Translations under genes and position numbers: made by a program
Source: Amphiscolops sp. MND2022
Lineage: Eukaryota
Length of the DNA: 64,000 nucleotides
Assembly (NCBI GenBank): GCA_964187785.1
Contig: OZ076409.1
Coordinates: forward strand, 18,106,001-18,170,000
Reading direction: 5' to 3'
The notes under the pieces: model-generated
Told to the model about the DNA's origin: nothing
Database searches by the model: none
The model's input: only the letters and a program-made list of their open reading frames with translations
Shown: piece after piece, positions 3,632-48,700 of the stretch
Position numbering within the stretch: position 1 is the first letter of the stretch
Layout of the letters: each line of letters starts with the position of its first letter

Positions 3632-4864
3632 CATTTGTAGCGTTTATTTCTGTGTTCTTAAGTTTCCGAACACAAGTTCACCCGCATATTGGTTTTTCCA
3701 GTTAACTTTTGAAAAGTTTTCAAATAATGGGTTGCAACAGGTTTGTTGTGAACGCTTTGATGTTAATAGTTTTCGTTTTCCTAGGAAAACACGAATAATT
3801 TTAGTTTCAACACGGGAAGTTTATGGCATGTTTTCCACTTTCTCTCTATGAAAAATTTAATACTGAAGAAGTTAGTATCCAAATTATTGAGCTTTTCTCT
3901 GATGACGCTTCATTAAGAAAACGACCAAGGAAACTTTCATTTTGAAACTGCCTTTTCTAGGAATTTTAAAATAGTTCAAAAATCAAGCAAAAGTTTTTTC
4001 AATGTTACGACAATATGAAACCAGAGCCGCATATGCGGTAAAGGAGTCGGCCTAGGTCTTTTTTCCTTCTGACTCGCTTCAATCCCAGTAATAAGAATTT
4101 ATTGAAATTGCACACATAGACCATACTATGGTGTAGAAAATGACTGTAGAAATTTTCGTTCGAATCGTATGGACAGCTTTTGAGAAAAAGTCGAAAAATG
4201 GTTGTTTTTGGGCTAATTTTGGCCATTTTTGGGCTAATTTTGGCTATGTTTCTCTCATTCCAGTCATACGATTTTGATGCCTTTGAGCACGCAGGGGCTC
4301 CTTTGGTTGTAGAATGAATGTGCAAAATTTTATGAAAATCGTATAGACAGTTTTTGAGAAATTTGAAATTTTCATGAAAAGGTCGGGAGAAAAAACGACA
4401 CGATTGGATAAGTAGTCGAAAATTTAATGATACTGACTGACTTTGATCTTTCTTACTATGTTGTCCAGCTATTTGTGCCCTGTAAGTTAGTTTTTCATCT
4501 CAACCTGAACTATACAACAAACCGATGGGCCAAAACGTTCATTTATCAATTTTCTAAGAAATACTTAAGCTGTTTCATTTTAAGCTGTTTGTCATCGTTC
4601 GTACAAAGGTGGGTCAGCTTGAACATCAAAGTCTCTCTTTTTCGGACTATGAGAAATTTTGCCTGAAACGTTTTCTCGTTTAAATCACCAAATCTATCTA
4701 AACAAAAAGATTCTATGCAAAAACAATGGAATACCCCTTCCCATTTGAATAATCTCGCATATGGTGGCTTTGCTGAAGCAAGATTCTATAAACTTCATTG
4801 CTTATCTACTTTTTGCAATATTTCAAACCACTTAGCATTTAGATTTTTAATTTATTCAACAGAC

Positions 4865-24700: not shown

Positions 24701-27700
24701 TTATTTTCGGAATAATGGAACGGTTAATTTATTTTCGGAAGAATGAATAGCAATCTTTACTAGAATGATTTCAGAAGTTACCAGACGCAAATGCATTTTA
24801 GAAGTTATTTACTAATATAATTTTAGAACTTATTTATTTAGAAGTTATTTACTAATATAATTTTAGAACTTATTTATTTAGAAGTTATTTACGTGATCCC
24901 TCGAAAACAGATCCAAATTCGAAGTACTCTTAATTTTAGGAGCTTACACATTTTAAGAAAGTTTCCATCCATTTGTCGATGCTTGGTTTCAGATGTTCAA
25001 AAGAAGAGCGATTACTTTTTTGTAAATGAAAGATTAGGGATTTCAATTTCGAGTTGTTCCAGGTTGATTATTCGTTTTATTCGATGCCACGTGACTCACG
25101 ATAGCTTACAAGGTGTCTCATAGGCTGGTTCTTGAATGGTTCTTGTTCTTGGAGTGGAACTATTGTTAATATAATGACTTTGTAATGCAAAAAAAATGCA
25201 TGACCATTGAATTTCATTTCCATTATTAACGATAGATTCAGACATATGTTGCTTCCTTCTCAACACAAAGCCCGCAGAATTTTGACTTGTTACTTACTTG
25301 TGCATTGTGTAACGGCGGTTCCAGAGGTGGTTGCCCAAGGTGTGGCGGCCCCAGCTGTTCTGTACTGAGCCACGATGGTATACGTGAATTCAGTTTGGCT
25401 TGCCAGATTCTGGTCATGAAAGAAGAGTTGTTCGCTGGTAACTGAAGCGGCATCTACTATGTCCGTAGTGTCCCTAGTGACAGTTATTTTCACACTGGGG
25501 TCAGCTGCCGTGTCATCTGCATCCACTCCATACTCCACCATTACAGAAGTTAGCCCGACTGCTTCTACATTCAAAGTGGGTGCTTTTGGTGCTGAAAAAC
25601 ATAACTGAGTAGAAGGTACATAGATTTCCGAAATATTACTGGGCCGAATGTAAGTTACCACACTATTGTTTTTGTTTCGTTATCCTATCTGTAAACATGT
25701 ATGGCAAAGGCAAGGAGCCTAGTCAGCTAACATATGTTGTGTAAGTGTTGAAGTGGTTGAAATAAAATCCAGTGTTTCAAAGTCCAAGCTGAGTTAGCGT
25801 AATGGTATGACTGTGTATCTCAATTGGAAACAAGCCGGAAACAGCATTAGTCGGCGCCCCGCTTAAGGCTCACAAATTGCAAAAGTACTTCAAAGCGTCA
25901 AAGATTCTCAGCTGAATAACTTCTCAATTTCCTTTGGGCTTAAAAATGCTTTTAAAAATTCTCACTAAAAATCACAAAATCAAAATTTTTGTTTTTTTCC
26001 CACCAGAAAATAAAACAAGAACCCTTTTGTGAAATATAATCTCCAAAAAGAGAGCACTGCGCGGAAAAAACCAAAAGGGGCGCCCTTTGGGCCTAAAAAT
26101 GCTTTTTAGAATTCAAAATTAACAAAACCAAAAGGGAGGGCATTTTCGAAAAAAGTCTCAAGTTGCACAAAATTTATTAGGCTTCGAAAAAATGTATATA
26201 ATTCTGACTAATTCGCCATTTTGTAGAGTTTTTGTACAATTTTAACATACGGCATGAACTGGCCACTTCGAGCGTGATGGAAAAAAACACGACGAAAAGT
26301 TGAAATAATATAATAGCCGCGTTTTATTTCATGAAGCACTGACTAAAATTCAATGAGCTAAAAGACAAAAGACACAAAACACTAAATCAAAACGTAAATT
26401 GAGACAAAACTTCGCATTTGGAGTTTTCTAAATTTTCAAAAAAAAATTACGTTGACAGTTGTTTGAAAGTTCTACTGGAAACTTTTTGGAAACAACTTAA
26501 AAAGAAGCCCCTAATCAGTTATTATTAACTTCCATCAATATTTCATGACTGCGCCATGATGATGAGAACGAACTACAGGTTCTAATATACAAAAAGGAGC
26601 TTGAATTAATAAAATCACAGATTTAAATTTAAAGACCGCAAAAATTACAGGCGAAAACGTTAAACATGCATTTTTCCGTAGGACATGAATTAGACATAAA
26701 AGTCCTAAGTGCCCAATTTTCTGAGATTTTGATCAGAATTACAAGGGAAAACAACTTTCACATTGAATGAAATATTAAAATGGTAAATTGCAATCTACTT
26801 ATGATTTTACAGAACTATTTGCAATCTTTATAGCCTTAAAGGTGTGAGAGACTATAGTTCATGAGTATACTTAAGAACTACTAAATTCGCAGGCCACGTT
26901 TAAATATTTAAGCGTAATTTGTTTCATTCAAAATGAAGGAAGTTTCAAAAACCCACCTGTGTAGCAGTCGAAAGTTTTTTCGTTTTTACATTCGCTTGGA
27001 TCACCAGCGCTTTCAAAAATGGACACGATTTTGCAATCGAATGTGGTTGCGGGTGCAATATCGGTAAACTCTGAAGAGGTGATAGCGGTGGACAGAGTGG
27101 CGCTGCTTAGTACACCAGAAGCTACGGTAGTGTACGCCGTCGCGCTCTGAGTTTTGATCATGACGTCATATTTGGTTGGAGCTGGAGTTGGGTTTGTCCA
27201 GGTGATAGTGATGCTGCTATCAGTGGACGTAAACAACTGAGTGGCCAATGCAGGTTCTGAAACGATGTAGACATTTTTATTGAAACCCGATTCGTAAATT
27301 TCAATTGGAAAGTTGTAGAACCGTAAAGCATTGAACATTATTAGAGAAATGAGCGTTTCTTTTTGAATTTCGGGAGACTCTAAATCCACACAAAAAGATA
27401 AGATAAAGTTAACTTCCACAGAAAATGACTGAAAAATTATCAAGTATCAAGTCCAGATCAGTGTGATCTCTTCTTGTTGGAAGTCTAAAACATACTCACT
27501 GGTGCAGAAAGTAGCAGTAATTTCATCAGTGCAAGAAATTCCAGTCACAACAGATGTTATCTTGACAGTGTAGTCTGTTCCGGCAGTTAGTGAAGTTGAG
27601 CCATCTGTAGTGGTGAAAGTGTACTCCAGAGTACTACCGCTGTCGATTTGAGGGGTGAAGGTGTGAGAGTCAAGAGTCACTTCGTACTTGCTGGGGTTGG

Positions 27701-30700
27701 GAGTCGCCGAAGGGTTGGCCCATGTGACTTTGAAGGATGACGTAGTTTTTGTGTAACCAGCATCTTCAGCCAGAGTTTCCGCTTGGTGGGGTTCTAAGAA
27801 AAACATAATACTGTGGAATGCAAACATGAATGTTTTTACATCGACCAAAGATTAGATCAAGGCACAACTGTTTCACAATGCTTTCAGACAGCAAACTCTT
27901 TAGCTATAACGACCAAGACTTTTAACTTCTTTTTATAGAAACCACTCATCTATCATGACGTTTGATTTTTCGCAGTTTTCATCCATTAAAACTAGCGAAA
28001 CTTTTTCGCGTTCCTCACGAACCTCGCTCCAAAAATTGATAACTTATTCCGTTTTTCTATTTTTTCCTGATACAACTTTATTGGGCACTAACCAGTTTGA
28101 GCTGTCATTATACAAAGAACGTCTGTTTAAGAACTAACTTGTACATTGCGATTGAGCAGGAGCGGAGTTGGAATAGGTTTCGTACGTCGCAGTCAAGACA
28201 TAGCTGTATGATGTTCCTGAAATCACAAATTTCTCAAATACTCAATCAATAGAAGTGTTTACAATGAGCTTCTAATGCAAATTAAACGAACATCAAATTG
28301 CCAACAGTGAGTTGAAGGTTAGCTGAAGAGTGCAAAATGCCAAAAGATTTTGATTGTACGATTTCGATTAGTGCGCGTCGAAAAACAGACATTCGATTTG
28401 ACATTACAGTGCGTAGACAAGCTTTTTCTGCGTATTTTGCGGAAACCATGACACCATTTTGCTGATTCCGAGCTACGCTTACGAAACTCCAGTCTCTTTG
28501 ATGCTGGCGGAATCTAAAAAAAGCCCATCTTTTGATGTTGCTGAAACGAAGAAAATCTTGAATGATTGATTGGTTAATAAATTTATTGTGGAATCCGGGA
28601 TATGAAATGCGGAAACTAAGACAGAAAGTTGCCGACAGATGTCTCGGTTTCCACGGCATGTGTCGAACCCAACCGTGTGGGTCGGCTTTGAAGGACCTTT
28701 CGAGGTTGACTGTCTGTTTTCGGTGTCTGTCTTACTTATGACAGCCATCATTAAGTCCTTCAGTTGACTGAACTCATTCTGTAGTTCGTTTATCTTTCTC
28801 TCATAACTCTCTTTTATTTCAGATAACTGAGACGAGATATCAGAAACCTCGTTGCTATCAGAGTCATTGGCAGAAGACTGAGCCATGTCTGGGTCCGTTT
28901 GAATGGGTGTTTCTGATGAGGAACTAATAACTCTTCCGCTTCTGAGTTCTGTGCCTAGATCTGGGTTCATAGAGGTGAGAGAAAAGGAATTATGAGTGAA
29001 GACTGGATTCTGGATGATTTTCGATGTATTTTACTATTTTGTGCCGTTATTCGAACTCAAACTCACTATTTCTGAACTTGAGATGTAAATGCGATGAGTT
29101 TTACAGTAAGACAAGGATACTAGTAAAGAATGAGAATAGTTAACGAGGATTAAGTAGAGTTCATCCAAATTTCATCGAATAGATATCAATCAAGAAATTA
29201 CTCAGAGTTGTGAAGGTAGCGTTATTTACGATGAATAAGAGATATGTTTTCTAGTTCAAATCTGTCGTAATTCGTCCAACTGGACAGTAGCTAATCGCAA
29301 TTTCGGTCTGTGTAAACTCTTATGGCGGTCCAAAATACAGCAGTTCACGTGTCTTTTCGGGCTGGTAAGACGCTAAATCTCTTACCAGCCGACTCTTATT
29401 GGCTATTGCCAGTTGGTGCTAATTGGTAAGTCACGTGACCGGTGTTGTGAACTGCCGCAAGTTGGCCAAACCACATGGTACATCTACATATGCTAATTAT
29501 GACTAATCATCACTTTACAATGTCGCAATTGCCTGCACACAGTGTCATGGTTTCTATAGCAACTCAAATCATTCAATAATGTACTAATTTCAAGTCAAAA
29601 CAGAGTAAGCTGCATCACAGGATGAGAAAACGATGTTTTTCCAACTAATTCTAGCATTAAAATCAATACTTCAAAAGCAAAGATGGAAACGCGATGAATT
29701 CGTCAGAATATTTGCTGATTTTCAAGTCTAGTTTAGCTCTGGATGAAAATGCGATGAATGGTGGTCTTTTAGCTCGAAAATCAACACGATATGAACTGAC
29801 GATGATAAAAGGATGAACTCGTCTTCAAAATGAATGATTTCCAGCACAATTTAAATCAACGATGGTAAAAGGATGAACTCTCCTCGAAAATAACTAATTT
29901 CCAGCACTAGTGAAATTGACGATGAATTCAGGATGAATTCAGCCAATAAAACAGGTGAAACAGCTAATTCTGCAGTGAAGACAAATATACGATGACTTTA
30001 GGATGAATACATTCAATAAAACAGCAAAATCTAATGAATGAAATTCCAACGATGGGTTTAGGATGAACTCAACTGAAAATTCGGCTAGTTCTAACGTAAG
30101 TCGAACTAGCGATGAATTTACGATGAACTAGTGATGAGTTAATCTAATAAAACAGATATCCAGCACTTCACTCTTTTTTAGGATGAATTAAGGATGTACT
30201 TTCTCATTTCTTGTAGTTTCTGTTCAGGACGATGAAATATAGATGTGTTATGCTCTTTTTAAGAAATGAGAAGCACATTGAAGGTTAATAATCACAAAAC
30301 GACGATGAGTATAGGATGGCTTTCATGCATTTTAAAGTCCCGTGAGATCCGCTGATGGATCACTAAATAAAATCAAATATATGTCCCAAATTTTGTTCAC
30401 CCGCAATCTTGGCGATGTGATTGCGATGAACCTTGATAATATAGCACCGTAATTTCACTAATAGATCAAGTTGTAGGATCACTAAGTCCGCTGATGGATT
30501 AGTGATGAACTTTCCTGAAATTCGTCACGACTACAAGTCCTGAGGCGAGGGAGCTAGTAGAAGTTACAGATTCCATTATTTCTACATCTCTCGGTCCAGT
30601 CTGACCGGAAGACTTCTCTCCCTTATCGTGACAAACCAATATTGAATAAGATAGCACATTAAAAGCTATTGGCAAGATCATTTGTGCGGACACCGGAATT

Positions 30701-33700
30701 AGAGCGCTCAGTATTAAGTAAATATATATAGCTCAAACTCAGGGGGGATAGGGATTAAAGTACAAGTAACGTAGGGTTGCTCACAACCATGGCTCTTATT
30801 ATATGACATCATATTGCCCATATCTAAGTACATAAGACATAATATTTACATTACAAATATTTAGTAGATTATATTTCCATCATGCTGGCATGACACTCCC
30901 CGGGGCGGGATTTGGACTGAGAGTGCAGGGACCAAATGCGCAGAGGATGGTTGTCTCGGCGTTGGCTTCGACTGATCCTTCGTTTGGTTGGGGAGAAAAT
31001 GGCCTTCGTTAGTTCTGAATTGGCATGTCCTTCGTTTGTTCTGTCCTGTGAGAGCTTCTCTGAGAAGAGGACCTTCGGTAATCGTCTTTTCTGGCATCAT
31101 CCTGGGTGATTTCGGTTAAAATTTTCGACGCGGCAACTCTAATTCTTGGTCCATCGAATGTCCGCTGACCTGCATTTTATTGGTTGTCATGCTTTTGACG
31201 GGAGTTTCGGCTGGTTATTTTCGGTAGAAGCTGATTTCTCGGAGAAAAGTTTCCCTCCAAAACGCCTACGCTGAGTAAACAATTCGATTAGCTTCACTGA
31301 CAAATTGGCAGCGAGTCAGGGATGAATGAACGATGAATTGTTTGCTCAGCGATACACTGATGCTGTTTAGCGGAATGGCTGGCGCCGTTACTTGTTTACT
31401 CGCGATGAAAGGAGATGAATCGTTGCCATAGCAACTGTCAAAAGTTACTTCCGCTGCTCGACTTTTGAGTGAAAGAGAAAAGAGATGAATTCGTCGCCAT
31501 AGCAACTGTTGCTCGATCTGATTGGCTGAGACTGAACTTATAACTGAAGGAAAATACAACCGGTTGTCAGCAGCATTCTCATCCATAAATCATCCTCCAT
31601 TCAAGTCGGTTTGAAAATCGCCACGATTTCCTTTGCGCGTTTCCGCTCAACTTCGTCGGTATAGATCTGAGACTGGCAGCTGTCAACAAATCAAATACTT
31701 GAAGTTTTTTGTCAAGTCCTGGGAGGGGACGATCCATTTTCAGAGAAGGCTTGAGTTGGTTGTACTGGGAAGAAAAGTGATGTCAGTATTTGAAATCGGA
31801 GAATTTTCATCGATTTTTCATCTTCTGAATTCAAGTATTTGATTAACATGGCATTCAAGCTGCGCCGCTTTTTGAAATCTTCTATTGAATTTGTTCTTCT
31901 GTAATCATGGTTGATCAGGCCATTTAATTACTGATCAAATTCTCTGCTCCTGGATTCTTCGATTTCTTTCCTTCTTTCACCGTCTTCCATTCTTTTCAGA
32001 TTGTTTTGCAATTTTTCGCGATGTCGGATATCAACTCCATCTATTCGTTACCGGAGACCGAGGCCACAGAAAGTAAGTGCACTATTTTTTCTCTTCTTCA
32101 CAAACGGGCCGGGGAATAATTAGGAATTGAAGGCGTGTCTTGGTTTTAGCGGACTCCGTTCACTCTGTCGGCATAATTTCCGAACTGACTACTTTGCAGA
32201 CAGTTCCGCCTCAAGATGCTCCGATCCCTGCAGCATCTCACGCACCTCAGTATCAACCTGAGCAGCAAACTGAACAGGCCCCTAACGTCCCGTATCTTCC
32301 GCAGTGTAAGTACTATCCTTCCATTCTTCAGTTCAGTCTTCGAATCCCTCATATCTCATCCTTACTCTGTCCAGTAGCTGACTCCTTTTCGTATGGTGTT
32401 TCAGACCACTACCCCTGGTATGCCTCCCTAGGCAGCATCACCTTCGGGTGGTATGACCGCCACATGCGGGACATGCTGCGGGATAGCATCCAGCAGTACA
32501 GTGAGTTTGTCAATTTCCTTTTCACTTCTCTAGGCTATCGTCCGAACACTCCGATGTGATTCCGATGTAAACATCTCATCTGCATGTAGTGTCCTTTGCG
32601 GTCGATTACCCATGTAATTCACCTTCGAGATGAATTTAGGATGTGTCATGAACATTCACAGCTCTTCATGACTGACTCGCTGTAAATCCCATTTTTGAAG
32701 ATGAGTTTTGGATGTATTCTTCTCCGGTTTTCTTTCTTCGCGCGGCGTACGCGCTCTTTCTTCTCTTATCGTCGTCGTCCAGTAACTGTTTCTTCTTTCA
32801 GGCCCCACACCGATCCACGCACCAAGGCCTCGTCCCATCAGCTATTCCGTAGGAGTAGGGACGAGTGATTTCGCCGCAACTAGTGCTGATGCTAGCACTC
32901 AAGGAGGGCCTCCTCAACTTGACTTGTCCTCGTTCCTTCAGGACTTGTCATTCGGGAGTGTAAGTTCTCCTGTCAGGCAGGCGCCAGTGTCTGTACTGTC
33001 GCCAGTGCTGAGGGGTTCTTGCGCCGCTAGTAGTCCTCCTCCTGCTCGTATCACTCTCGACGCTGCTGTGAATGCTGTTGTCGATTGCGTGGATGCAGTC
33101 ATCGATGCCGTTGTCGATACCTCTGATCGAGCAGTCCAGGCCGTTGTGGAAGTCAGTGAGTCCTCCACCTTCCATGATCCTCCTGTTGAGGAACCTGTCA
33201 TCGTTGCCTCTTCTTCTGTTCCTGCCTTTTCAGTCAGCGGCACTGATACACTTGGTGATGCTTCCGTGAGTACTGCCGGCGGTGCTGAGACCCTACTTGA
33301 AGTCCCTGGTGACTTCTCGTCCGACAGCCTTCTGCCTGCTGAACCTGACCGAGAATCTGCTTCTCCCAGTGCTGCTCTCATGTCGACCGTGGCTTCTCCC
33401 ATGGGACCCAGTCTACTGGATAGTGATGACGAACCAATCGCGTCCCGTCTGCCAGGTTAACTAAACAGCTTTAAACTGGTGAAATATCTGATCAGTAGAT
33501 TTTTCATTCATTTCCTTCTTCGCTTTTGCTTTCACTAGCATTTTTCACGTTTTTCTTCTTTTCTATCCATTTTTCATCGTTCTTCTGTTTTCACTATATG
33601 GTTTTCTGCAGTTTTCCATTTTCCATCACATTCTCATCGTCAAAAGTCGTTGAACAATAGTTTTCGCTCTCTAGTCCTTTTTAGAAATTTCATCTCTTTT

Positions 33701-36700
33701 ACATCTTTAAAATTTTCTCTTTTCGGTTTTCGCTATTTGTCGGTGTTTTCTTTTCAGTTTTCATCTCTTTTTCATCGTTAAGTTGTTTTCGCTCTAAAAT
33801 ATCTCAATTTTTGGTTCAAAGTCGTTCTATTTATCTCTTTTCCATCGTTCAAGTTTTTCATTCTTTAAGGTTTCCATTTTTCATTCTGGTGGTGTGCAAA
33901 ATGCATCTCTTTTTCATCTTTTCGTTTTCTTCGTTTTTCGCTTATATTTCCTGATGAAAATATTATTTTACATCATTTTTTCATCACTCCGGGTGACTTT
34001 TGGAAGTTTGCGGTGGTTTTTTCATTTTTCAGTTTTTAAAGATTATTTTAAGATGATCTTGGAATTTTGTGGGAACGTGGTCGTTTTTAGTGGATGTGCT
34101 ATGTGTTGGCATGTGATTATTTCTGTTTGTAGGGCGAAAAGTGATCAAGTCATGGTGGTTTTCTCATGAATACTGTGGGCTTGCACTGGGCTATGCACGA
34201 AGTCATCAATCGCGGCTATCATTCGTTCGATGTTTACTGTGCAAGCGTGATATCAATGTTGGCAGCCGTGGTATCACTACTTTCATGGAGCATTGTCGTG
34301 GGCTCCGTCACCATCGTTTGGACTGTCTGATTCGTTTGTTTCGGGATTTACCGTTGCGGCGACGCGACGGGTCATTGATGAGTAATGAAGAGAGTGTGGA
34401 GTGTAGGAGCAGCCTGGGCGGTGCAATGGTGCCGTTCATTGAGACGTGCCCCTCCTTTAGTGTACTGGAGGTGTTTGAGTTGGAAGCAGCTGGACGACCT
34501 GTGTGGGGGGACGAGGAGGAAGAGGATCTATTGTGTGAAAAGACGGTGCATCTGTTCGTGTGCCTGGTTATTGACTCAATCTATCGTGGGTGTCAGTTCG
34601 CCAGCGTAACGAGTTTGTGGGAGGTGATGGTTGCGTCAGAGCCGCAACATGCCTCTCTTTTCGGTGTTACTTGCGAAGTGAATGACGTGATGGTAATTCG
34701 TATTTCTTTTTGTTTTTTGTTTCATGAAGGTTCGTGTAGATGGAAAAAAAATACATTTAGTGGGTGGTTTTCCATAGGTAGTTTTGAAGCTTGGGTAGGG
34801 GGGATTTTCAACTATTAATTGTGTCGGGTTATTTTTAAGCGGATAGTGAATTAATGTATAGTAAAGTTGATGTTTGTTTTTAGAGTGTGGTTCTACTGAG
34901 TTTGTGGCCGTACGCGATGAAGAGGCTAATCACTCTGTGGTCTAACTGTGGGTTCACTAGCTTTCATGTGGCTGTTGGGCAGGGGCGCGTGACTGGCACG
35001 GTCACAATGTGTTCTCTAGAAGGGATCAGTCAGTACTGTGTCTTCAGTTTTTGTCTGTCTCAGGATTGGGAAAAACGAGTTGTCACGTGGATGATTAACA
35101 TGTGGTGTTGTTTGCTTGGAGAACCTGTTCCACTTGGACTGTGTTGCGATGCGTTGCCACAGCTGGGTGGACTGTTCCAAGCCGCCACTGGCGTTGGGTC
35201 ACTGGAGTTGAAGACGCTGTCATTGTGTGAGATCAGTCGGACAATTGTGGACGTGGGAGGGCGGGCGCTCGGCGGGACTGATATTCATGTGGTGCTGAAT
35301 CATCTGCAGAAAAGACTGAAAGGATATGTCAGGGATCCTCTGTTGTTGAGCTGCCCTCATCTGTTGCAGGTCGGTGTAGTCTTCCGCTTTTATTTGAGTG
35401 TTACTATGAGTTGTACTCTTTGTCTGTTTCTGTTGTTTGTATATTGGTAGTAGTTTGTATTGTAATATTTTGTTTTATCTATGTGGAGCTTGTTATGTTT
35501 TGTTTAGGCGATTTTATCCGGGGAAGTCTACGTGTGGACTCTTGCTGATGTGTGCGATGAATTACGTGCCAATTGGGCAGAAGTGCTGTGTCTAGTTCGA
35601 TTCGCTTCGGGAGACGGGCCAGTAGATGCGTTGGATCTTACTTTGAGGGTGGAGTTCGGGATCCCAATCAGGCTCCGGGCACTTAGTATGGTCTATCGTG
35701 CTTGTTAGTATGTTGTATACTTACCGGGTGGGAAGTTTCTGTAGTTGGCCGTTTTTACGTATTCGAGTGTTTAATCAATTCGCATTTTTCGGGAAGGGAA
35801 CGGGGGGGGTTAGTCCGATTATTTACTGTGTATAGAATTGTTGTGTTTTTCATTTCAGTAGTGACGTCGTACGAAAAGAGTTTCGGGTCTTCATCATTGC
35901 GGAGTTGCTACTGGGCGATCGAGAGTGCATTCTTTGTGAAACGCCTGCTGACTCTACTGGTTGACGAAGAGAGCCTGCCCACTGATCTGGATATCCGTGG
36001 GTGGTTGTTTGTGGATGTAGACAGTTATGTTGTGTCAGCGACTAAGTTACAAGCCCTTATCGCGAGTTTCAGCTCGGATGAGAATTTGACGGAAGATGTG
36101 GCTGTGTATGAAGAGGATGTGTCCCGAGTGCCTAATTTCTTATTGTCTATCGTCAGGAACGTATTATTGCTACCAGGGATTCGTGACGATCTTGCTTTCG
36201 TGCGAAGTGTCTTTAGTTCACCCAGACTGGTTTGTGTGGCGGAAACTGATCTTGTGGCGGAAATTCGCAATTTTACTGGTTTACTTGTGGAAATGGGGCG
36301 GATCAGTTTAGTCGAACAGGATCGAATGGAGCTCGGATTTCTGGAATTTATAAGGGCTTTTCGGTGCGAGCCTAGGCCAGCTGGGGCGACTGCCGAGTAT
36401 TCAGCCGTTGATCTGTTGCGTTGCTGTTCCAGTCGCGGGTCACAGAGTCTGTTACAACTTGTCTTTTGCCTGGGAGGGGTGGTGCAGAGCACTTGCAATA
36501 CCATATGCGAAGCGATCGGGCACCTGCCGAGCGATGTCATGAGCTGTGTGTGTGCAGTAACCTCTGGTTATTTGTCTGCTAATCATGTGCGAAGTTACGG
36601 TAGTGTCAGTGGGCCACTGATGGAAGAAGTGATGGAGTCGCACAGAAGGCTCGTCGATCTATCAGAGATTACAGAGGGCATGTTGTGGGACGACGTCGGT

Positions 36701-39700
36701 ATCGTGGCTGGGGAAGATTATCGTCTCCAGTTATATGCTAGTCTTGGTTACGATGTGACCGGGGAGCGGGCTGCCAGTCCCGAGATTGGAAACTGACTTA
36801 TTAACTGTTTATGTTGTTCATTGTTTTGCTATATAATTTGTTGTATTTACATATTAGTGTAGTTATTCATATGTTGGGAGACCCATGAAAAAGGTCAATA
36901 AATGGAAAGCACAGTAATGACCATAGTGCGAATGATACAAATCCAGATGCTACGGCGGAAAGATCGGTAGTAGTGTGTTTACAACATTAGTTATTTTGGT
37001 GCCCAACAGCTGTTTTTCTTTTGAGTTGTTAGTGATAGTTACAGAGGATATTAAGTACGTGTAAATCAACAAGTTCGTCCAACAGTTCACTTGAAGCATT
37101 GTCTTCGGTATTTTTGTATCATAGATCATCGGTCGCGCATCGCTTTTATGGTGTTCATCGTTATTACATCTCGTGGTAGTGTAAGTAACTCGTCAGCGTT
37201 TGATCTTTGATTTTTCATCTCATTTTCATCACGTTTTCCTCGGTCGACCAAGCGACGTCGTGAAAACTGTTTTTGTCATCGTTTTTACATCTTTCGGTGC
37301 GTCAGAAACATTGCATGTTGTTACATGTGGTTTTTCTACGTATTTCATCATTTTTTCATCTTGCGTTTGATTTGAGCACTTTCGTGCGTTATTTGCTATA
37401 GTTCATCGTTTTTGCATCGCAAGTTTGTCTTGTTCAGTTTCTGCTCATTTTGCTGTATAGTTCATCTTCTTTTCATCGTGCGTTTGAAATGTACGGATTT
37501 TTGCGTGTTTTCGATGTTATTTGGCTATAACGTAAGCGGGGGTTGCATTTTTCGTGTCCGGAGGAAATTTTTATTAATATTGCGGTGTTTCGGATTGTTT
37601 TCTTCATGTATTTTAGCGTTATACGGTTATAACCATTTGTCGTGTTTTTGAATTTGCATGAATTTTATGGTACATGTGTTTTAATCATCGTCGTCATGTT
37701 TCTAATTTGTCAACTTCGGAACGTCATTGCATGTATTTTTAGTTCGAATTCTGGTGACCGCCGCTTGCGTGGCAGTCGAAAATAAGTTCACTCAGCAGTG
37801 GTACTGATAGCCTGTAGGCGTGCAAGGTACTAGTGGCTTCAGTCCAGAGCTGGGTGAGTGGAGCTGCTCCGCTCCTTTCAGATAAATGGAATCTCGTAGT
37901 TTCGGGCTATATATAGTCTATATGTCATTTTTTCGGTCGGTTGTTTGCCATTATTCGTCGAAATGGGTTTGTCCATTTGACGGTCAGTCCGATCAATCAA
38001 TGTGATTGACATCTACGGTTATGCATGTGTCCAGTTTTAGACTATCTGTTTCTTGTATTTGCATGTATGGATGGTTACATGATGTGCTCTTTTAAATGGG
38101 TTGCCCCATTATTGACATGTCGTTATATGTTCGGTGGTAGTTTCATGTTTTCTAATTTTATTTTCGTTCATTTGGACAGGGCTTTGTCGTCACAAGGCCC
38201 CTACAAAACTAACTGAGAATCCACTAGCCGCTGGATAACCAACGCAGCAAGCTTCATCCGAATATGGTTGTGAGCTCCCCGCCTCAACTAACCAGCACTC
38301 TTTTCAGAGAAATGCCAGCCAGCACGAAGGAATGATTTTAGTTTTTCGGTAGGGGTGTTTTGTATTTTATGAGCTGATGTTTACTGGGGGGTGCTCACTC
38401 CTTTATTAGTTTTGTAGGTGTTTCGTCAGTTCTTATATTTTGCATGTAAGTTAGTAGACTTCATGTATTTTCGATTGTTTGTTTCATTTTTATTCGTCTA
38501 GGTTCGGATGGTTTTGGTGTGAATTGCATATATTATCTCATTCATTTTTGAACGGTACATGTATATTTCCGTGCGTTGCTCATTTGTATTGCATGTAGTT
38601 TGGAATTGTTAATTGCTTTCGTGACGTCATTGATTTGGCAGGTCTTTGAACTTTACATGTATTGATCATTTCATTTTTGTGTCGCATAATTTCGTTGCAT
38701 GATTCGAAATAAGGTCGGTTGTTTTTTATCGTTTCGTGGAGTTACATGTTGTTTGCGAATTAGCTGATTTATTGTGATGTTATGTTGATGGTGTTTCCCA
38801 TCACAAAGAGGTGTTGGTAAGTCATTTAATATTTTCGAATTTCCATTTAGACTAAATTCATCGTTTTGACATCCTCCAGCGAAGCTAGAGTATTGTGTCA
38901 GGTTAACGATAAATTCGGTCGCGATTTGATGGTAGTGTCCATCACAAATTCATCTCGTTAATTGATTTCATGTAATTTATGAATAATTGGATCGAGTTCA
39001 TCGCTATTTCATCCTCTGGCCGAGCTAGAGTCTTATGATAGCATGAACGTGAGTGCGTTCGCATTCTGATGGTATTTCCCATCTCAAATGCATCGTTAGT
39101 AAATATTGCATGTTGATTGGTCTATTTTTTGACTGAGTTCATCACTTTTTCATCTCTCGTGTGTCTGAGTTAAATTTTCGTGTGGTTTCATCCTTTTTTC
39201 ATCTCAAATTTTGTGTGTTGTTTTTTCTGGTTTTTTGATCGTTTTTCATCCGTTTTACATCTCGTTTTGTTTGTATGCGGTTTTCATGTGATTTTTAGTA
39301 ACTTTTCATCCATTTTACATCTTCATGTACTTTTTAAGTTAAAATTGCATGTAATTCGTTCGTTTTTGTGATTTGTTCATCCGTAACACATCTCAGATTT
39401 AAAGTGAAACTTTTCTTGGCTAAATCGTTACGTCTATTTTGTTGGTCTTTCTCAGTGCGTTTCTAGCTGAAGTAATCTCATGAATGAGGAAGTCTGGATA
39501 CGTTTTCGGTGTAGGGTTCTCACGTAACCTGTACCTACTTTGATTTGATCTAGACGGTCTAGAACTCATCCTTTCTTCATTTTCGTTTTGCGTGTTTGTC
39601 TGTTGTGACTGGTTTTCGTGTTGTTCGTCTCTCAGAGGTACTCTTATCCTACTTTCATCGCGGGGAGGCGGTAGAATAATTTCTTCTCGCGTTCCAAATC

Positions 39701-42700
39701 TAACTGTAGGTGGTCTAAAGTTGTTGTGATCAGTTTCTACTTGCTGATAGTCTATCCTCGTGGTTATTTCTGGTGGAATTACTTGTGGAGTGTGTTGTTC
39801 TTGTACCCGAGGAATTGTTTCTTCTGAAGGCTCTTTTTCGACCAAGTCTTGATCTAGATTGTCATTCTCATCCTGATCTACTTCGTCGGTCATCGGAATA
39901 TTCGAGTCGAAAATGTCCGTGTCTTCAACCCTTTCGGTATCTGGGTAGAGATGTTTGGACATGTTGATGTCGTCAATCGGAAATTCCGGTTTGAACAATC
40001 TCAGTCGCATGCGATGTACGCACTGAGTTTGGTGTGTGCCTACTTTGCGGATGATGTAGTTGCTATCGGATAGCACTTTAATCACCTTGTACGGTCCTTT
40101 CCAATGGAAAGTTTTAAACTCTTCTTTGCTTCTCTGAGAGTCGTACTTAGGGTCTAGTAGGAACACAAAGTCATTCACCTTCAGTGGCTGTGCTCGTGCT
40201 TTTCTATCATAGTACGTTTTGTACTTGTGATAGGCGGAAATGATGTTGTCTAGATTGTCTCTGAAGATAAAATTCATTTTGTCTAGAATTTCGTTCACGT
40301 CTTTGCACTTTGTTTCAGCCGGTTTGTTTGCGTTTCGGAATTGCAGATCTAGTGAGTTGTATGGTGTTCTTCCGTGGAAAATTTCGGTTGGTGAGCATTT
40401 CAGTGAATCATGATACGTTGTGTTATGGGCCATGATTGCTATGTCGACATAGCGGTCCCATTGTGGTCTGTCTGCGTTTACACTAATCTTAAGGATCTTT
40501 TTCAGTTTCGCGTGCGTTCTCTCCACCATGCCTATTGTCTGCGCGTGCTTTATCGTGGCATGGGAGATGTGAATATCAGCCGCTTTCGCGATTTCAGACA
40601 GAAGTTCAGCCGTGAACGCCGTGCCTTTGTCGGTCAGAATGTGTTTGGGCACATACGCGTGTTTTGTGAAGATCGACAGTAGTCCTCTGACTACGGAATG
40701 TGTGTCAGGTCTCTTCAGCGGAACGGCGAACAGGTAGCGCGAAAAAACGTCAACAGCCGTCAGAATGTGTGTAAAACCGTTCGATGCCGGGAGTGGACCA
40801 ACGATGTCTATTTCCAGCAGGTCTTCTGGTCCGTCGCACGGGTCGTAGATTTTTTGTAACGGTGGACGTAGTTGCGTTTCTTTTACACTTTTAGACTTCA
40901 TGCAGTTTTCACATCCGTCAAGGACTTTTTGAACTTTATAGGCTAAGTTAGGAGAGTAATATCTTTTACGAAGTTCATACAACATTTTCTTTAAACCAGG
41001 GTGTCCTTGTACCGGGCTGTTATGTAGAGTCCTAATTATTTTCAAAATACAGTCTTCAGGAACGACTAACTGCTTATGAGACTCTAGTCCCATGTGGTCA
41101 AAAAACTGTCTGTACAAGACACCGTTTACAACTTGTAGGCGTTTTCGATTTTTGTACAACTTTTGAAAAAACTGGTCTTGCATGTTAACTGGGTGTTGCA
41201 AAATTTCAGTACCTTCTAAAAATCTAATCATTTTTTGGATAACCCAGTTATTTTTCTGGACCTGAATTAGATCGATCCCCTCGGCGGGGCTAACCTGACT
41301 CATTACCGGGTGTGATAATGATACTTTACGGATGAATTGCGAGAGTTGAATCGGCTCGTCCACGTCTGTGAGGCGGTACGTCAGATGGTTGTCAGTCGCG
41401 AAGTCATCTGAGGCCGCAGTTCTCTCACAGTTGGTGAACTTCATCCCTTTCCCATCGTCATGAGCCACGTCAGTGCCAGTTGCCAATTTCATCTCTTTGA
41501 CATCCTTCTGGCGTTTGCATCTGAGTGGTTCGCTCGCGGGGAAGTAATCAGGCTCGTCTTCCTCCTGTTTTGGTGTACGGGAGGCGATGTCGATCTCGAT
41601 CCTGTGAATTGGAATAGTATCAGTCAATTTTAAATGTACACGGTCTTCAGGTCTAATCTCAAGCCGAGATAAGTAATCCGCTGCGGGATTTTCAACTCCT
41701 GGAACATGTGCTAATAGAAAATTGAACTGAAGGGTTTGATCGCAAAAGTTCCAAAGTGAAGGCGGGATATGCTTCGCCTGGAAAAATCTAGTCAAGGCCT
41801 TATTGTCAGTCATAACAATGATGGGTTTTTCGCACCCCACAAAATGTGGCCAAATTCATCGAATGCAAAGTGCATAGCTAAAAACTCTTTGGCATACATT
41901 GTTAGAGACATCTGGCCGCCCTGAAATTTCTTAGAGCCAAATGCAACAGGGGCGTATGTATGTTTGACTGACGGGTCTGCATAATCCTCGATTAACAACA
42001 CATAGCCTGCAGCGTGTTCGCTGGCGTCACACATGATTACCAGTTGTTTATCTGGTAATGGCAATTTCAGAGACACTTTTGTTGCTTTTAACAAACTTTC
42101 ATTAATTTCAAAAATAGCATCTTTATGTTGTTGGTTCAGCTTGAAAGGGACGTCTTTCTTGATGAGTTCCTGTAAACAACAAGTTTTATCAGCTAGACGG
42201 GGAATGTAAGACCTGTAAAAGTTCACAAAACCAAGATAACGTTGCAACGCTTTCACTGAATTGGGGGGTTTCAACTTCGTTAAATAGTCTGTTACGCGTT
42301 TTTCAATGGGAGCAATACCAGTGCTAGAAATGGTTTTTCCCAAGTACTCAATTTGTTTTTGTCCAAATTCACATTTACTCATGCTAAGTTTAAGACCAGC
42401 TTTTTGCAATTGTTGAAAAACAAGTTCAAGGTTGGTAATCAATTCTTCGGGTGAGTGTGCTGCAATTCCAATATCGTCAACGTATTGGGCACAGCGGTCC
42501 GCTTTGACCAGGGGGTCCAAATACTCACGGATTACTCCTGTAAATGCTGACAAAGAACGATTAAGACCTTGTGCTAGACGTAAAAATGCAAAAGTTCTAG
42601 ATCCAAAATTAAACGATAACAGTTGGACAGATTGCTCATCGGCCATTGGAATGCAATGGTAGGCCTGGGAACAATCAAGTTTGCAGAAGTACTTTTTCCC

Positions 42701-45700
42701 GGCCATGTGTTGGGCAGCGTCAGCAATTGTTGTTACGGGATGATTGTGCTCACCGTAATCGTTTTTGATCAGGTGGTTTATTCTTCTCAAGTCAACTAAA
42801 ATCCTCAATTTACCATTAGGTTTACGCTGAGCAAATATCGGGGAAGAGTATTTGCTGTGAGGCAAAGTAGTTATAATCCCGTACTCTTGCATTAGGGCTA
42901 ACTCCACGAGCAAATCGTCCTTCAAATTTGTCGGAGTCGGGAGACTTTGTGAATAAACAGGTTCTTCATGTTGAGGTGTTAACTTAACTTTAAAATCAGT
43001 GTTCATGCCAATATCAAAACGGTGTCTAGCAAAAATGGAGTTGTACTTTACCAGCAACTCCTCTACCTGTAACCGTTGAGACGGAGTAAGAAGCGAGTCG
43101 TCCCAGTTGAAGTTCTTCAGGAAGTTCATCCGTTGTTCATCGGATTGGGACGGGTCAAGCTTCTCGAGCTCTCGCAGTGCCAGAATCTCATCATAAATCC
43201 GTCGCTCAATTGCGTTGAGTTTGTCTGGCTCACTGCACGTCTCGGGAGTTGGGTACCACTTGGTTGACTTCATTTCAGGGTTCACAAACAGTTGGTTGAT
43301 CACTGCTTCGGCTTCATCTGGATACTTGGTGATCAAGTTCAAGTGTTCCACTGGCATGGGCGTGATGTTTGCCGCCTGGTGTGGTGTCGGGATGCGAAAG
43401 TGTGCCAGAGTGGTGTTGGCTTCAAGTGTGTACGTGTGGTTGTTTGGGTTGGTGACCTGGATTGTCGTCTTGCCCTCGTCTAGGTCAACCAAAGCTGGAG
43501 AAACAAGCAAACACGTCTTTCGCATGAATCCAGGTGAGCCCTCAACTGTACCAGTTGTAAGTGAGATGTCCGCGTCACTGTGGACCTGTATCATCACTTG
43601 ATGGAGAGGAGGGATCACTGTTCTAGTACTGGAACACAAATCAATTAAACCAGTTTTGAATCTGTTGTTCTTTTGCTGTCTAACTTGCATGGACATCATG
43701 TGATTAGGGAAGTGGACAAGGTGGTTTTTGATGTCTAAGTTGACTGAGTACTTTTCAAAAAAGGACATTCCAATTAAAATTGTTCCCATTGTTGGAAGGA
43801 TTAGGAACGTTTCTTCGAATACTTTTCCAGCAACGTAAAATCTAAGTAAGACTTGCTTACGCACTGGGACTAAGTTCCCGTTTGCTATTTGAATTTTGAA
43901 ATTCGGAGGGGGGAATTCTTGAAGGATGGCTTCTGGATGAGCCGTTGTTATTTTTCGCAGTTCGGCTTCAGACATTGCACTTTGTATTGCGCCTGTGTCT
44001 AAAAGTGCGCTGTTTTCGTATTTGTCAAACTGAAGAGGGACGTACAGCATTTTATCTTTCTTGTTTAAATGTAAAGTGGGACTGAGAACGTGAATTTCTG
44101 TTTTAATTGCATGTTTTTTAGTTTTTGAAACGTTAATACTACTCTGTTTTGCATGTTTTTTAATACTAAGCCGTTTGTCGATTGTTGAGTGTGAAGTCGA
44201 GTCGTCGTCTAGATGGTGGGTTTCCATCTCTTTGGCATCTTCCACCTGCCTCATGGTGTTTGGTTGCCAGTTCATCGTTTGTTCATCGTTGATTTCAGCG
44301 AGTGGAGAAAAACGGCTGCCGTTGAGTTGACTTGCATTTCTCATCGCTTTTTCATCGTTGGAAAGTCTTCGCTGATAGACGTCGTCAGCTTTTGGTCGTT
44401 TGTCCAGTGAAGGCTGCCATTTCTTCATTGGACGGTCGTGTGTAGTCGGTTGAGTCGAAAGTCGTTGGTCGCGCGTTGTGTTTCTAGCGGGCGGAAATCG
44501 TGGCGGAATCAAAAACCCTGATTTATGTCTTCATCAGAGTAGGTTTCTTGGTCTTCTTCTTCGGTGACTGCTTGCATAGGGTTCATCGGCTTTTGTTGTC
44601 GTTTTAAGTCTTGTCTTCTAGTTCTGTTGTCATCTTGTGAATTCGTTGCGTATGGAATCTTTCCATATGCAGAACTGCTTTCTTTAGGGACACGTCGTCT
44701 GCAATCCCTTGCTGAGTGGCCTGTGTAACCGCAAATCTGGCAGACCAATTTTGGATTGTATTTCGGCTTATCTGGATCGGCTGCTTTCTTCATTGGGATT
44801 GCATCCTCCTTCTTTATGCCGTTCGCTTCGTCTCGTTGTCGGGCGCGACATTCCGTTTTGCGGTGTCCTGTCTTTCCGCAGTAGAAACATTGTCCTTCAA
44901 ATCGTTTTCGTTCTGTCGGTTGTGCGGTCGTCGTTGTTGTTGTAGGCTTCGTCGTTGTAATCGTAGGTGGTGCTGAGGAGGTGACCGCGTTGAATGGTTG
45001 GATTGCCGTAGGTGGCGCGACGTACTGCTGGTACTGGTATTTTCGCATTAGGTAGGTTTTGATTTCCTCTGGGGAGCTCTCTTCTTTGTTTGCCATGGTG
45101 AGCTCTTGTTGAATCTCGACTGGCAGTTTTCCAAACAGGAACATTTTGATTATTCTGTCGGCCTCATTGCCGAAGGCTTGTTTGGCAGTCTTCTTGAGAT
45201 TTTTGAGGAAATCGCCGAATGTTTCTGTTGTGGGATCATAGCGTGCTTGATCCCATTTGTAACGGGCCACTTCCTTTAGATCCTCTTTTGCAAATTCTTT
45301 TCTGAAGAGGTCGAGTACGTCCTTTAGTGTTGTCATCGGCGTTATCTGGATGGATTGCCAGTATTCTATTGCGTCATCTCTCAAAAGGCTTTGAAAGAAG
45401 TGTAGTTTGTTCTCCTCGGTGATTTTGTTGGCAAGCGGGCTAAGGTGGTTGAGGAGAAGGTGTTCAAATTCGACGAATTTGTCTTTTTGGCCTCTGAAAT
45501 TTGGCACGTGTGTCTGCAGAAGCTTCGTGTTGGTGGTTGTGTTTTTGATCCGTTGGGGGATCGTCTCGATTGCATTGAGCAGTCGTTCCTCATTGCTTCT
45601 GGGGGTTGATTCTCCTTCGTCTGAATCGTCTTCTTGGTAACTTCTGAAGTTGGTGAAGCTGGTGGTCGGGCGGTTGGAGCGGGTTTCTGTAGCTCCTGTC

Positions 45701-48700
45701 ACCATGTCGAACCCAACCGTGTGGGTCGGCTTTGAAGGACCTTTCGAGGTTGACTGTCGGTTTTCGGTGTCTGTCTTACTTATGACAGCCATCATTAAGT
45801 CCTTCAGTTGACTGAACTCATTCTGTAGTTCGTTTATCTTTCTCTCATAACTCTCTTTTATTTCAGATAACTGAGACGAGATATCAGAAACCTCGTTGCT
45901 ATCAGAGTCATTGGCAGAAGACTGAGCCATGTCTGGGTCCGTTTGAATGGGTGTTTCTGATGAGGAACTAATAACTCTTCCGCTTCTGAGTTCTGTGCCT
46001 AGATCTGGGTTCATAGAGGTGAGAGAAAAGGAATTATGAGTGAAGACTGGATTCTGGATGATTTTCGATGTATTTTACTATTTTGTGCCGTTATTCGAAC
46101 TCAAACTCACTATTTCTGAACTTGAGATGTAAATGCGATGAGTTTTACAGTAAGACAAGGATACTAGTAAAGAATGAGAATAGTTAACGAGGATTAAGTA
46201 GAGTTCATCCAAATTTCATCGAATAGATATCAATCAAGAAATTACTCAGAGTTGTGAAGGTAGCGTTATTTACGATGAATAAGAGATATGTTTTCTAGTT
46301 CAAATCTGTCGTAATTCGTCCAACTGGACAGTAGCTAATCGCAATTTCGGTCTGTGTAAACTCTTATGGCGGTCCAAAATACAGCAGTTCACGTGTCTTT
46401 TCGGGCTGGTAAGACGCTAAATCTCTTACCAGCCGACTCTTATTGGCTATTGCCAGTTGGTGCTAATTGGTAAGTCACGTGACCGGTGTTGTGAACTGCC
46501 GCAAGTTGGCCAAACCACATGGTACATCTACATATGCTAATTATGACTAATCATCACTTTACAATGTCGCAATTGCCTGCACACAGTGTCATGGTTTCTA
46601 TAGCAACTCAAATCATTCAATAATGTACTAATTTCAAGTCAAAACAGAGTAAGCTGCATCACAGGATGAGAAAACGATGTTTTTCCAACTAATTCTAGCA
46701 TTAAAATCAATACTTCAAAAGCAAAGATGGAAACGCGATGAATTCGTCAGAATATTTGCTGATTTTCAAGTCTAGTTTAGCTCTGGATGAAAATGCGATG
46801 AATGGTGGTCTTTTAGCTCGAAAATCAACACGATATGAACTGACGATGATAAAAGGATGAACTCGTCTTCAAAATGAATGATTTCCAGCACAATTTAAAT
46901 CAACGATGGTAAAAGGATGAACTCTCCTCGAAAATAACTAATTTCCAGCACTAGTGAAATTGACGATGAATTCAGGATGAATTCAGCCAATAAAACAGGT
47001 GAAACAGCTAATTCTGCAGTGAAGACAAATATACGATGACTTTAGGATGAATACATTCAATAAAACAGCAAAATCTAATGAATGAAATTCCAACGATGGG
47101 TTTAGGATGAACTCAACTGAAAATTCGGCTAGTTCTAACGTAAGTCGAACTAGCGATGAATTTACGATGAACTAGTGATGAGTTAATCTAATAAAACAGA
47201 TATCCAGCACTTCACTCTTTTTTAGGATGAATTAAGGATGTACTTTCTCATTTCTTGTAGTTTCTGTTCAGGACGATGAAATATAGATGTGTTATGCTCT
47301 TTTTAAGAAATGAGAAGCACATTGAAGGTTAATAATCACAAAACGACGATGAGTATAGGATGGCTTTCATGCATTTTAAAGTCCCGTGAGATCCGCTGAT
47401 GGATCACTAAATAAAATCAAATATATGTCCCAAATTTTGTTCACCCGCAATCTTGGCGATGTGATTGCGATGAACCTTGATAATATAGCACCGTAATTTC
47501 ACTAATAGATCAAGTTGTAGGATCACTAAGTCCGCTGGTGGATTAGTGATGAACTTTCCTGAAATTCGTCACGACTACAAGTCCTGAGGCGAGGGAGCTA
47601 GTAGAAGTTACAGATTCCATTATTTCTACATCTCTCGGTCCAGTCTGACCGGAAGACTTCTCTCCCTTATCGTGACAAACCAATATTGAATAAGATAGCA
47701 CATTAAAAGCTATTGGCAAGATCATTTGTGCGGACACCGGAATTAGAGCGCTCAGTATTAAGTAAATATATATAGCTCAAACTCAGGGGGGATAGGGATT
47801 AAAGTACAAGTAACGTAGGGTTGCTCACAACCATGGCTCTTATTATATGACATCATATTGCCCATATCTAAGTACATAAGACATAATATTTACATTACAA
47901 ATATTTAGTAGATTATATTTCCATCATGCTGGCATGACAGCATGTCTAATGTTTTAAGTGTATGTTATGGGATTCCGCAGAATTGCGTTGACGGTTTCTC
48001 GGTTTCCACAACACTAGTGGAATTCAATCAAATTTGTACGTTTAAAGACATGTCTGTGGAATCTCAGGAGTTACACGCACAAAATTGTGTTTGCAGAAAA
48101 TAGGCGGGTCTATGCACTGTAATGGAGAGTCAAAACAACAGATTAAATCATTTTTCATAGTCGTTCGTTGGCTTTCAAATTAGAGATGGAGCTATTGACC
48201 ATGTCCGGACCCATGTGTAACGTTACCATTTAATACATAAATAGGAGCATGGTGGTGACAAAAAAATCGCTGAAACACTCTCATCCAACTTTTGAAATGG
48301 CATTGAACACATATGATTGTTCTTTTTACTGACTCTGCCCTTCTGAACAGAAAGGAGGTTACGAACAGACGAGGGCAGACCGAAGGCGAACAGAGAGCCT
48401 GTATAGCAGAAAAACTATTTTTAAAAACTCAAAATTAGCAGGAAATCAGTAAAAAACATCTTTGTTGTAGTTTGGTGTATTACTGCTGTATTTTAGCAAC
48501 ACGCAACGTTTTATCCTTGTTCTGTACTTGGAGCCCCAGTTTACTAGTTGTGTGTACTGCCATGCTGAAGTTTTGCAGTATCGATTATCAAAGTGTACGC
48601 CTGAATGTTTGAGCTTGTGAGCTCTTCTTCACCATTTCGTTCTTGGGCTTATTATCCTTAGAAATTGAATCATTTCTCTCGCAGTTTTTTAATGCTATCA

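Follow-up and report, generated by a model that had tools for sequence, protein, structure and literature searches.

Exact GATG dyads along a young Ty3/Gypsy retrotransposon and a candidate antisense-encoded protein that may read them

A run of paired GATG motifs in the genome of Amphiscolops sp. raises the question of what reads such pairs, and why one element should carry so many of them. The pairs lie in a 64-kb stretch of DNA that was analysed as a whole (the window; positions 18,106,001 to 18,170,000 of contig OZ076409.1). A sequence-only reading had described them as dyads of two GATG half-sites with a seven-base spacer (GATG-N7-GATG), and had taken them for a protein-binding array rather than a satellite.

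Dyads along a young, high-copy element

At least 13 dyads had been claimed in about 800 bp. Counting overlapping occurrences, we found 14 at 29621-30428, where 1000 dinucleotide shuffles average 0.048 and never exceed 2, with one triad among those of the LTR array (30111/30122/30133). Within this interval, 27 of the 28 GATG belong to dyads. The lone one, at 30354, is in phase with its neighbours, which are 50 and 60 bp away, and is similar to the dyad at 30493, so that it is likely a decayed dyad. Position 30493 is itself the start of a 15th dyad, just beyond the interval; one of the two LTR mismatches (30494, versus 47538) hits its half-site, so that the 3′ LTR has the complete dyad and the 5′ LTR a broken one. 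The recurrence of about 60 bp was confirmed, spacings in the LTR array being 61, 60, 59, 60, 60, 70, 60, 60, 71, 49, 73, 110 and 79 bp. The array had also been placed in U3, upstream of an X-box/CCAAT promoter. This fits, as on the minus strand it precedes motifs that we take to be an X-box-like site, an E-box and two CCAAT boxes.

A spacing scan, proposed for k = 0-20, was run over k = 0-30. The sole spike was at k = 7, with 53 dyads (one LTR counted) against 0 to 3 at any other spacing. All 53 lie inside the element described below and none in its 44.7 kb of flanking DNA; over the whole window with both LTRs, 69 of 69 dyads are within the element. Among all direct pairs of 4-mers with k from 0 to 25, GATG-N7-GATG has the top excess in the element, its own shifted versions coming next.

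The features of this element are collected in the table. Two 2235-bp LTRs, 99.9% identical, with TG...CA ends and a 5-bp duplication, together with the domain order gag, then protease-RT-RNase H-integrase (Pfam matches in sequence), make it a full-length Ty3/Gypsy retrotransposon. It is young, and its insertion very recent, because the LTRs differ at two positions and the element is flanked by the 5-bp duplication. A TGG sequence resembling a primer-binding site immediately follows the LTR end, and the gag frame, with its 45705-46074 part, crosses both that end and this sequence. The window contains no tRNA gene, and Rfam returned no match. A relative with an unbroken pol heads a pol cluster of 1482 member sequences, many of them fragments; judging from these sequences, the family is high-copy. 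No remnants of a related element were found elsewhere in the 64 kb. Fibronectin type III-like exons (25290-27851, minus strand) adjoin the element, which may have inserted in an intron of a host gene. Together with the RFX-type boxes, these exons fit a eukaryotic host that is probably an animal. The 3′ non-coding stretch at 36797-39419 is dense in CATG, with 26 occurrences in 2.6 kb versus 3.7 per kb outside, and the GCATG of the target-site duplication itself includes CATG.

Table. Coordinates of the element, its dyad arrays and its predicted genes and promoters (positions in the window)
Feature	Position	Strand	Remarks
Full-length Ty3/Gypsy LTR retrotransposon	28661..47939	-	19.3 kb, TG...CA ends
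Target-site duplication GCATG	28656-28660 and 47940-47944		5 bp, abuts both element ends
3′ LTR	28661..30895	-	2235 bp, 2 mismatches to 5′ LTR (28715, 30494)
Predicted LTR promoter	29398..29563	-	X-box-like 29550-29563, E-box 29431-29438, CCAAT ending at 29426 and 29402
LTR dyad array	29621..30507	+	15 dyads counted with overlaps, most at intervals of 59-61 bp; AA/TT locked in phase; probably U3
Predicted accessory-gene promoter	31321..31822	.	X-box-like 31422-31435 and 31493-31506, CCAAT 31521-31525
Predicted antisense accessory gene	32021..36796	+	8 exons, 7 GT-AG introns, 1049 aa, no internal stop
Predicted accessory exons	32021-32072, 32150-32305, 32375-32500, 32802-33455, 34133-34692, 34884-35369, 35508-35685, 35859-36796	+	
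Intron 3 dyads	32553..32714	+	three
Intron 4 dyads	33624..33985	-	five
Exon 5 finger (C-x2-C...H...H), candidate BED type	34133..34692	+	aa 363-390, then helices
Dyads 3′ of accessory gene	37127..37477	-	seven
Dyads directly behind pol	38859..39392	-	nine
pol (protease, RT, RNase H, integrase)	39420..44530	-	two frames, break in RNase H region
gag frame	44509..46074	-	CCHC knuckles; begins within LTR
5′ LTR	45705..47939	-	second array copy (46665-47472) and start of gag frame inside

The description of an array in the LTR was therefore right as far as it went, as the array is there; the dyads are not specific to the LTR, however, and 36 of the 53 are internal. The LTR accounts for 17, the surroundings of a second promoter for 3, two introns for 3 and 5, the stretch from the accessory gene to pol for 18, and pol itself for 7. 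The non-LTR part of gag has 0, and the LTR tips are free of them, the closest being more than 380 bp in. Within the span of the predicted accessory gene all eight dyads are intronic, although exons make up 66% of that span (p = 2×10−4). The dyads are on the plus strand in the LTR array and in intron 3, and on the minus strand in intron 4, in the 3′ arrays and in most of pol. As they face both ways relative to either transcript, a motif acting at the RNA level was rejected, and we infer that duplex DNA, not RNA, is what is read.

Exactness, phase and codon use of the dyads

Relaxing the motif gave no excess: dyads with one mismatch number 24 at k = 7, compared to 12 to 40 at other spacings. The count of 40, at k = 10, is likely the shadow of a GA-N-GATG found before the first half-site in 10 of 38 units. 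DNA between the dyads is close to random in comparison. Linker identity is 0.31 in the LTR (0.28 expected) and 0.28-0.38 in the other arrays (0.29-0.33 expected), and between the five arrays it is 0.22-0.34, meaning that their linkers are unrelated. Traces of a repeat origin are nevertheless visible, since the LTR stretch 29797-29925 is a recognisable 60-bp tandem repeat with 78% matches, and adjacent units are marginally more similar than distant ones (0.34 versus 0.31). A decayed third half-site was seen at −11 in 2 of 38 units and at +22 in 1 of 38. Linkers being near chance except for one tandem stretch, tandem duplication would have made the arrays and selection kept the half-sites; afterwards, it is likely that half-sites, phase and bend alone were retained. 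The contention that this is a protein-binding array and not a satellite is supported, by inference from the exact half-sites with no excess of near misses, the near-chance linkers, both orientations and the dyads in pol codons.

The spacing between dyads is not continuous. Thirty-six intervals between neighbouring dyads group at 48-49, 58-61, 67-73 and 79-81 bp, that is in steps of about 10 bp, with a best period of 10.3 (R = 0.72). When the 58-61 class is left out, the 18 remaining intervals of 40-90 bp are still in phase (p = 5×10−5, against a uniform null picked post hoc). The bases around the half-sites are not free either. Spacer and linker had been said to vary freely; this holds for the linkers as overall identity goes, but the seven-base spacer has an A/T-rich middle part (identity 0.41 versus 0.33), the four bases past the second half-site prefer AA (0.55 versus 0.34), and AA/TT steps are phased relative to the dyad, with peaks at about +6, +16, +26 and +37 and at −23, −33 and −43 from the first G.

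The phase lock of AA/TT was strong in the LTR array, none of 20000 random-phase draws being as strong, and in the array behind pol (p = 10−4), which has the same phase as the LTR array. These p values are optimistic, as units within one array share ancestry; the LTR and 3′ arrays, for their part, have unrelated linkers and opposite strands. In the first 3′ array, behind the accessory gene, the lock was borderline (p = 0.054), and it was not significant in intron 3 (p = 0.99), in intron 4 (p = 0.39) or for the 14 isolated and pol dyads (p = 0.93). In the three larger arrays the phase peaks at 6.6-7.0. As to the period, spectral peaks were found at 10.0 and about 12, both harmonics of 60, and a local fit gave 10.6-11.5. 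Local AA/TT power near 10 bp is 9-13 in the arrays versus about 7 outside. Periodicity is present in two to four arrays. GATG centres are half a turn off the A-tract centres. By standard DNA geometry, a half-turn offset would put the major grooves of GATG on the inside of the bend, an arrangement that suits a protein core wrapped by the DNA better than a nucleosome with a reader on its outside. Several repeat families of the host flanks also have periodic units of 10-12 bp and raised AA/TT periodicity (4012-4423, 18131-18665, 54979-55135, 7167-7274, 49582-49653 and 50216-50278).

Six of the seven dyads in pol are translated as D-x-x-x-M. Three of these precede the protease, another is in the RT region and two are in the linker between RNase H and integrase; five of the six are in variable linkers, with spacings of 48, 48 and 69 bp. 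All six D[VADEG]xxM peptides of pol are coded GAT...G ATG, whereas GAT accounts for 35% of Asp codons, a joint chance of about 2×10−7. The single such peptide in gag uses other codons. For relatives known from protein only, this peptide footprint served as a proxy for dyads. It was counted in 15 listed members per cluster, out of 40 read, for clusters of 153 to 1482 sequences. The element's own pol cluster and its sister had 49 and 36 footprints in 15 members each (85 in 30), compared to 2 in 120 listed members of eight other pol clusters. Relative to the sister family, D and M are kept in 41 of 44 positions, while linker residues match in 70 of 310 (these sequences are related, hence not independent), and the sister has an additional footprint 48-51 nt further along. 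As D and M are kept while linkers diverge and the footprint is limited to the family, the code appears older than the linkers that surround it, and confined to one clade. In five members of a distant pol family (P0138, P0143, P0146, P0147 and P0157), the RNase H-integrase linker contains two D[VADEG]xxxM peptides 21 residues, or 63 nt, apart. This pair would be the trace of a GATG-N10-GATG dyad, or could reflect a helix constraint.

A predicted antisense gene with a candidate DNA-binding finger

A predicted accessory gene runs antisense to gag and pol in the interval from pol to the 3′ LTR, with an AATAAA following at 36897. Its exon borders were picked by eye for frame fit, and the model is a prediction. 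Three dyads fall in its predicted promoter (31321 on the plus strand, 31594 and 31822 on the minus strand). In 31404-31506, a single GAGATGAA-type half-site stands immediately before each of its two X-box-like sites, and the first of these half-sites makes a k = 6 pair.

The N-terminal third of the predicted protein is acidic and rich in P, S and T. Exon 5 encodes a finger whose ligand pattern is present and conserved among relatives. Against Pfam zf-BED, exon 5 gave an E value of 0.0016 and 18.8 bits, below the 20.6 cut-off, and 3 of 33 aligned members matched. The sole PDB sequence match was ZBED2 (2djr, E = 0.43). The AF2 model of this exon is confident (pLDDT 86). Foldseek returned nothing at E ≤ 0.001, Hermes (E = 2.4) and ZBED2 (E = 2.8) being among the non-significant rows; an Atlas lead pointed to BED clusters at 0.85, a wide fold search gave generic helix pairs only (Z < 6), and a word-index search among longer proteins gave none. 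Four weak but concordant lines (Pfam, the ZBED2 sequence match, the Foldseek rows and the Atlas lead) make exon 5 a candidate BED-type zinc finger. Relatives of exon 5 comprise 72 proteins, down to about 25% identity, and those of the finger are 20-66% identical.

The last exon, exon 8, has relatives at 37-98% identity, which fall into 15 clusters, some of them of 28-46 members; its model is poor (pLDDT 49) and had no fold match. Neither a hAT catalytic (DDE/RNase H-like) domain nor a dimerisation domain was matched in exons 6-8 with Pfam or PDB. A transposase origin of the accessory protein is suggested by the finger. TRP28 (PF04195), which marks Retand elements, was not found in the accessory exon frames.

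Candidate readers of the dyads and known systems

What, then, would bind the dyads? With about even confidence, we propose that they are likely binding sites for the predicted BED-finger accessory protein of the element itself, which would read pre-bent DNA and so activate or de-silence its own family. This is the most economical reading, because it joins two family-specific oddities, the dyad code and the accessory gene. The gene would be expressed from its own X-box/CCAAT promoter, and could retain introns since the genomic RNA corresponds to the opposite strand. Two BED fingers would read two GATG cores one helical turn apart, together with the A/T-rich bases after each, a readout modelled on the Hermes BED domain with its 4-base core and AT-rich flank. 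Phased A-tracts would bend each 60-bp unit with the GATG major grooves facing the inside of the bend, and an oligomer of the accessory protein could wrap this bent DNA. Dense loading next to both promoters might then open chromatin or block silencing, as VANC and TnpA do, the protein marking copies of its own family and keeping them transcribable. The sign of the effect could also be the opposite, that is repression instead of activation.

Host-factor arrays are common in LTR elements, and Su(Hw) reportedly acts on Drosophila gypsy. The dyads might accordingly bind a host protein, either an activator or a Su(Hw)-like insulator or repressor, recruited by the element's family, the accessory protein doing something else. 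Both predicted promoters already use host-type motifs, all the dyad statistics fit any sequence-specific dimer, and a family-specific array is equally expected if the factor was recruited by one family only. We nevertheless find a host reader rather unlikely, given the 0 dyads in 44.7 kb of host DNA in this one window, the near absence of the footprint from the eight related pol clusters, the extension of the sites beyond promoters into introns, 3′ DNA and pol codons, and the presence of a candidate reader in the element. DNA shape alone is a less probable answer still: the phased A-tracts would bend the DNA or reposition nucleosomes and resist silencing, as do periodic A/T clusters (PATCs; 10.64898/2026.08.08.743475), and GATG would be a relic of the founding repeat. 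The raised AA/TT power of the arrays, and its occurrence in further repeats of the window, speak for shape. But shape needs no eight exact bases, whereas here perfect dyads number 53 and one-mismatch dyads are at background, and the pol dyads have kept their exact codons with no A-tract phase. It is more probable that shape assists a reader.

The two poorest fits are a role in replication and neutral decay. The sites could serve the replication machinery rather than transcription control, with integrase or Gag coating the cDNA, or in nuclear import or targeting, the accessory protein being possibly an adaptor. Dyads do span the entire element in both orientations, as a cDNA coat would require, and hAT BED domains build a transposition complex on such repeats (PMC10368747). 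However, the dyads concentrate near promoters and in non-coding stretches rather than at the LTR tips, and RT is still 74-78% identical in clusters that lack the footprint; a replication role is quite improbable. As for neutral remains of tandem duplication with 11-bp slippage, they would account for the 78% tandem stretch, the triad, the slight resemblance of adjacent units and the spacings of 49, 60 and 71, which differ by 11. That account is largely refuted, and we give it hardly any credence: half-sites are exact while linkers have decayed to chance, decayed third half-sites are all but missing (the 2 and 1 of 38 units above), and five separate arrays with unrelated linkers occur on both strands, with dyads also in pol codons.

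Among the known systems closest to the one proposed are several of plants. In Arabidopsis, VANC21 binds a short motif that its own family carries in dense arrays, both in introns and in non-coding regions (PMC5735166). The likeness to VANDAL/VANC (PMC5735166, PMC10398659) lies in a family-specific short motif dense in non-coding DNA and accessory-gene introns, in arrays born by tandem duplication, and in an extra protein encoded by the element. Here too we found a dense short motif, family-confined and mainly non-coding, as judged from one window and the peptide proxy. The resemblance is one of analogy, as VANDAL is a Mutator-like plant DNA transposon with a 9-base single motif, and the present element is an LTR retrotransposon with a helically phased dyad of two half-sites, known from sequence, whose sites extend into pol codons and whose BED-type finger has no demonstrated homology to VANC. 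Transposase-derived factors also activate cognate copies, and Spm TnpA and the AtMu1 transposase are, as our candidate would be, transposon-encoded, transposase-type DNA-binding proteins that act on repeated motifs in their cognate copies (10.64898/2026.08.24.746577); those belong to DNA transposons, unlike our candidate, which is in a retroelement.

In its architecture the element recalls the antisense ORFs of plant Retand, Grande and RIRE2, although it is not a member: TRP28 was not found here, 7 introns are predicted, and the plant arrays are ordinary tandem repeats, while here half-sites and phase alone are kept. No function is known for the antisense genes of Retand elements or for their repeat arrays (PMC11963269, PMC7264820). 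The Hermes BED domain requires AAGT and an AT-rich region (PMC10368747), and hAT BED domains on subterminal repeats offer the same combination of 4-base core and AT-rich flank, with cooperative binding of several BED domains and bending, as would be expected of the candidate reader. They differ in that the Hermes core is irregular, partly palindromic, near the ends and used for transpososome assembly, compared to strict head-to-tail GATG pairs throughout the element. C. elegans PATCs originate in minisatellites of transposons; they encode DNA curvature and give protection against silencing (10.64898/2026.08.08.743475). Their 10-bp A/T periodicity in introns resembles that of two to four of our arrays, and an origin in transposon repeats and a proposed anti-silencing role are further points of likeness.

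Among retroelements, foamy viruses encode Tas, a DNA-binding transactivator of both the LTR and an internal promoter, which resembles the proposed accessory protein. Tas differs by its sense-strand gene, its few degenerate sites, its lack of a BED finger and its vertebrate retroviral host element. Search listings of the open-access literature contained no description of this element, of the motif, or of a BED-finger accessory gene in an LTR retrotransposon. We would tentatively suggest, though the odds seem to us somewhat against it, that a transposase-type BED finger was captured by an LTR retrotransposon of an animal, where a spliced antisense gene now encodes it, and that the element evolved a matching, helically phased barcode running even through pol codons. 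The outcome would be self-encoded, family-specific anti-silencing, of a kind described so far for plant DNA transposons, in which sister families would use different barcodes.

That a transposon can activate itself through a sequence-specific protein of its own is established for DNA transposons of plants, whereas no function has been known for the antisense extra genes of Gypsy elements. In the present case one young, high-copy element combines a candidate reader with a candidate target of unusual exactness, whereby the role of LTR-element antisense accessory genes can be reduced to one binding assay. If true, base readout and DNA shape would here work together in a natural system, which would also offer a small, programmable-looking family of DNA-binding proteins.

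Viral contigs and prokaryote genomes contained no locus related to the element. Four weak, GC-rich metagenome matches had neither dyads nor a tblastx match to the window, and were judged to be chance. A triple-dyad pattern occurred at 85 loci of viral contigs; those listed were plain tandem or coding repeats with no relation to the window. In one viral contig (L018, 4782-5160), a repeat of about 29 bp recurs unchanged every 71-74 bp between spacers that are each unique, a CRISPR-array-like arrangement that is likewise unrelated to the window.
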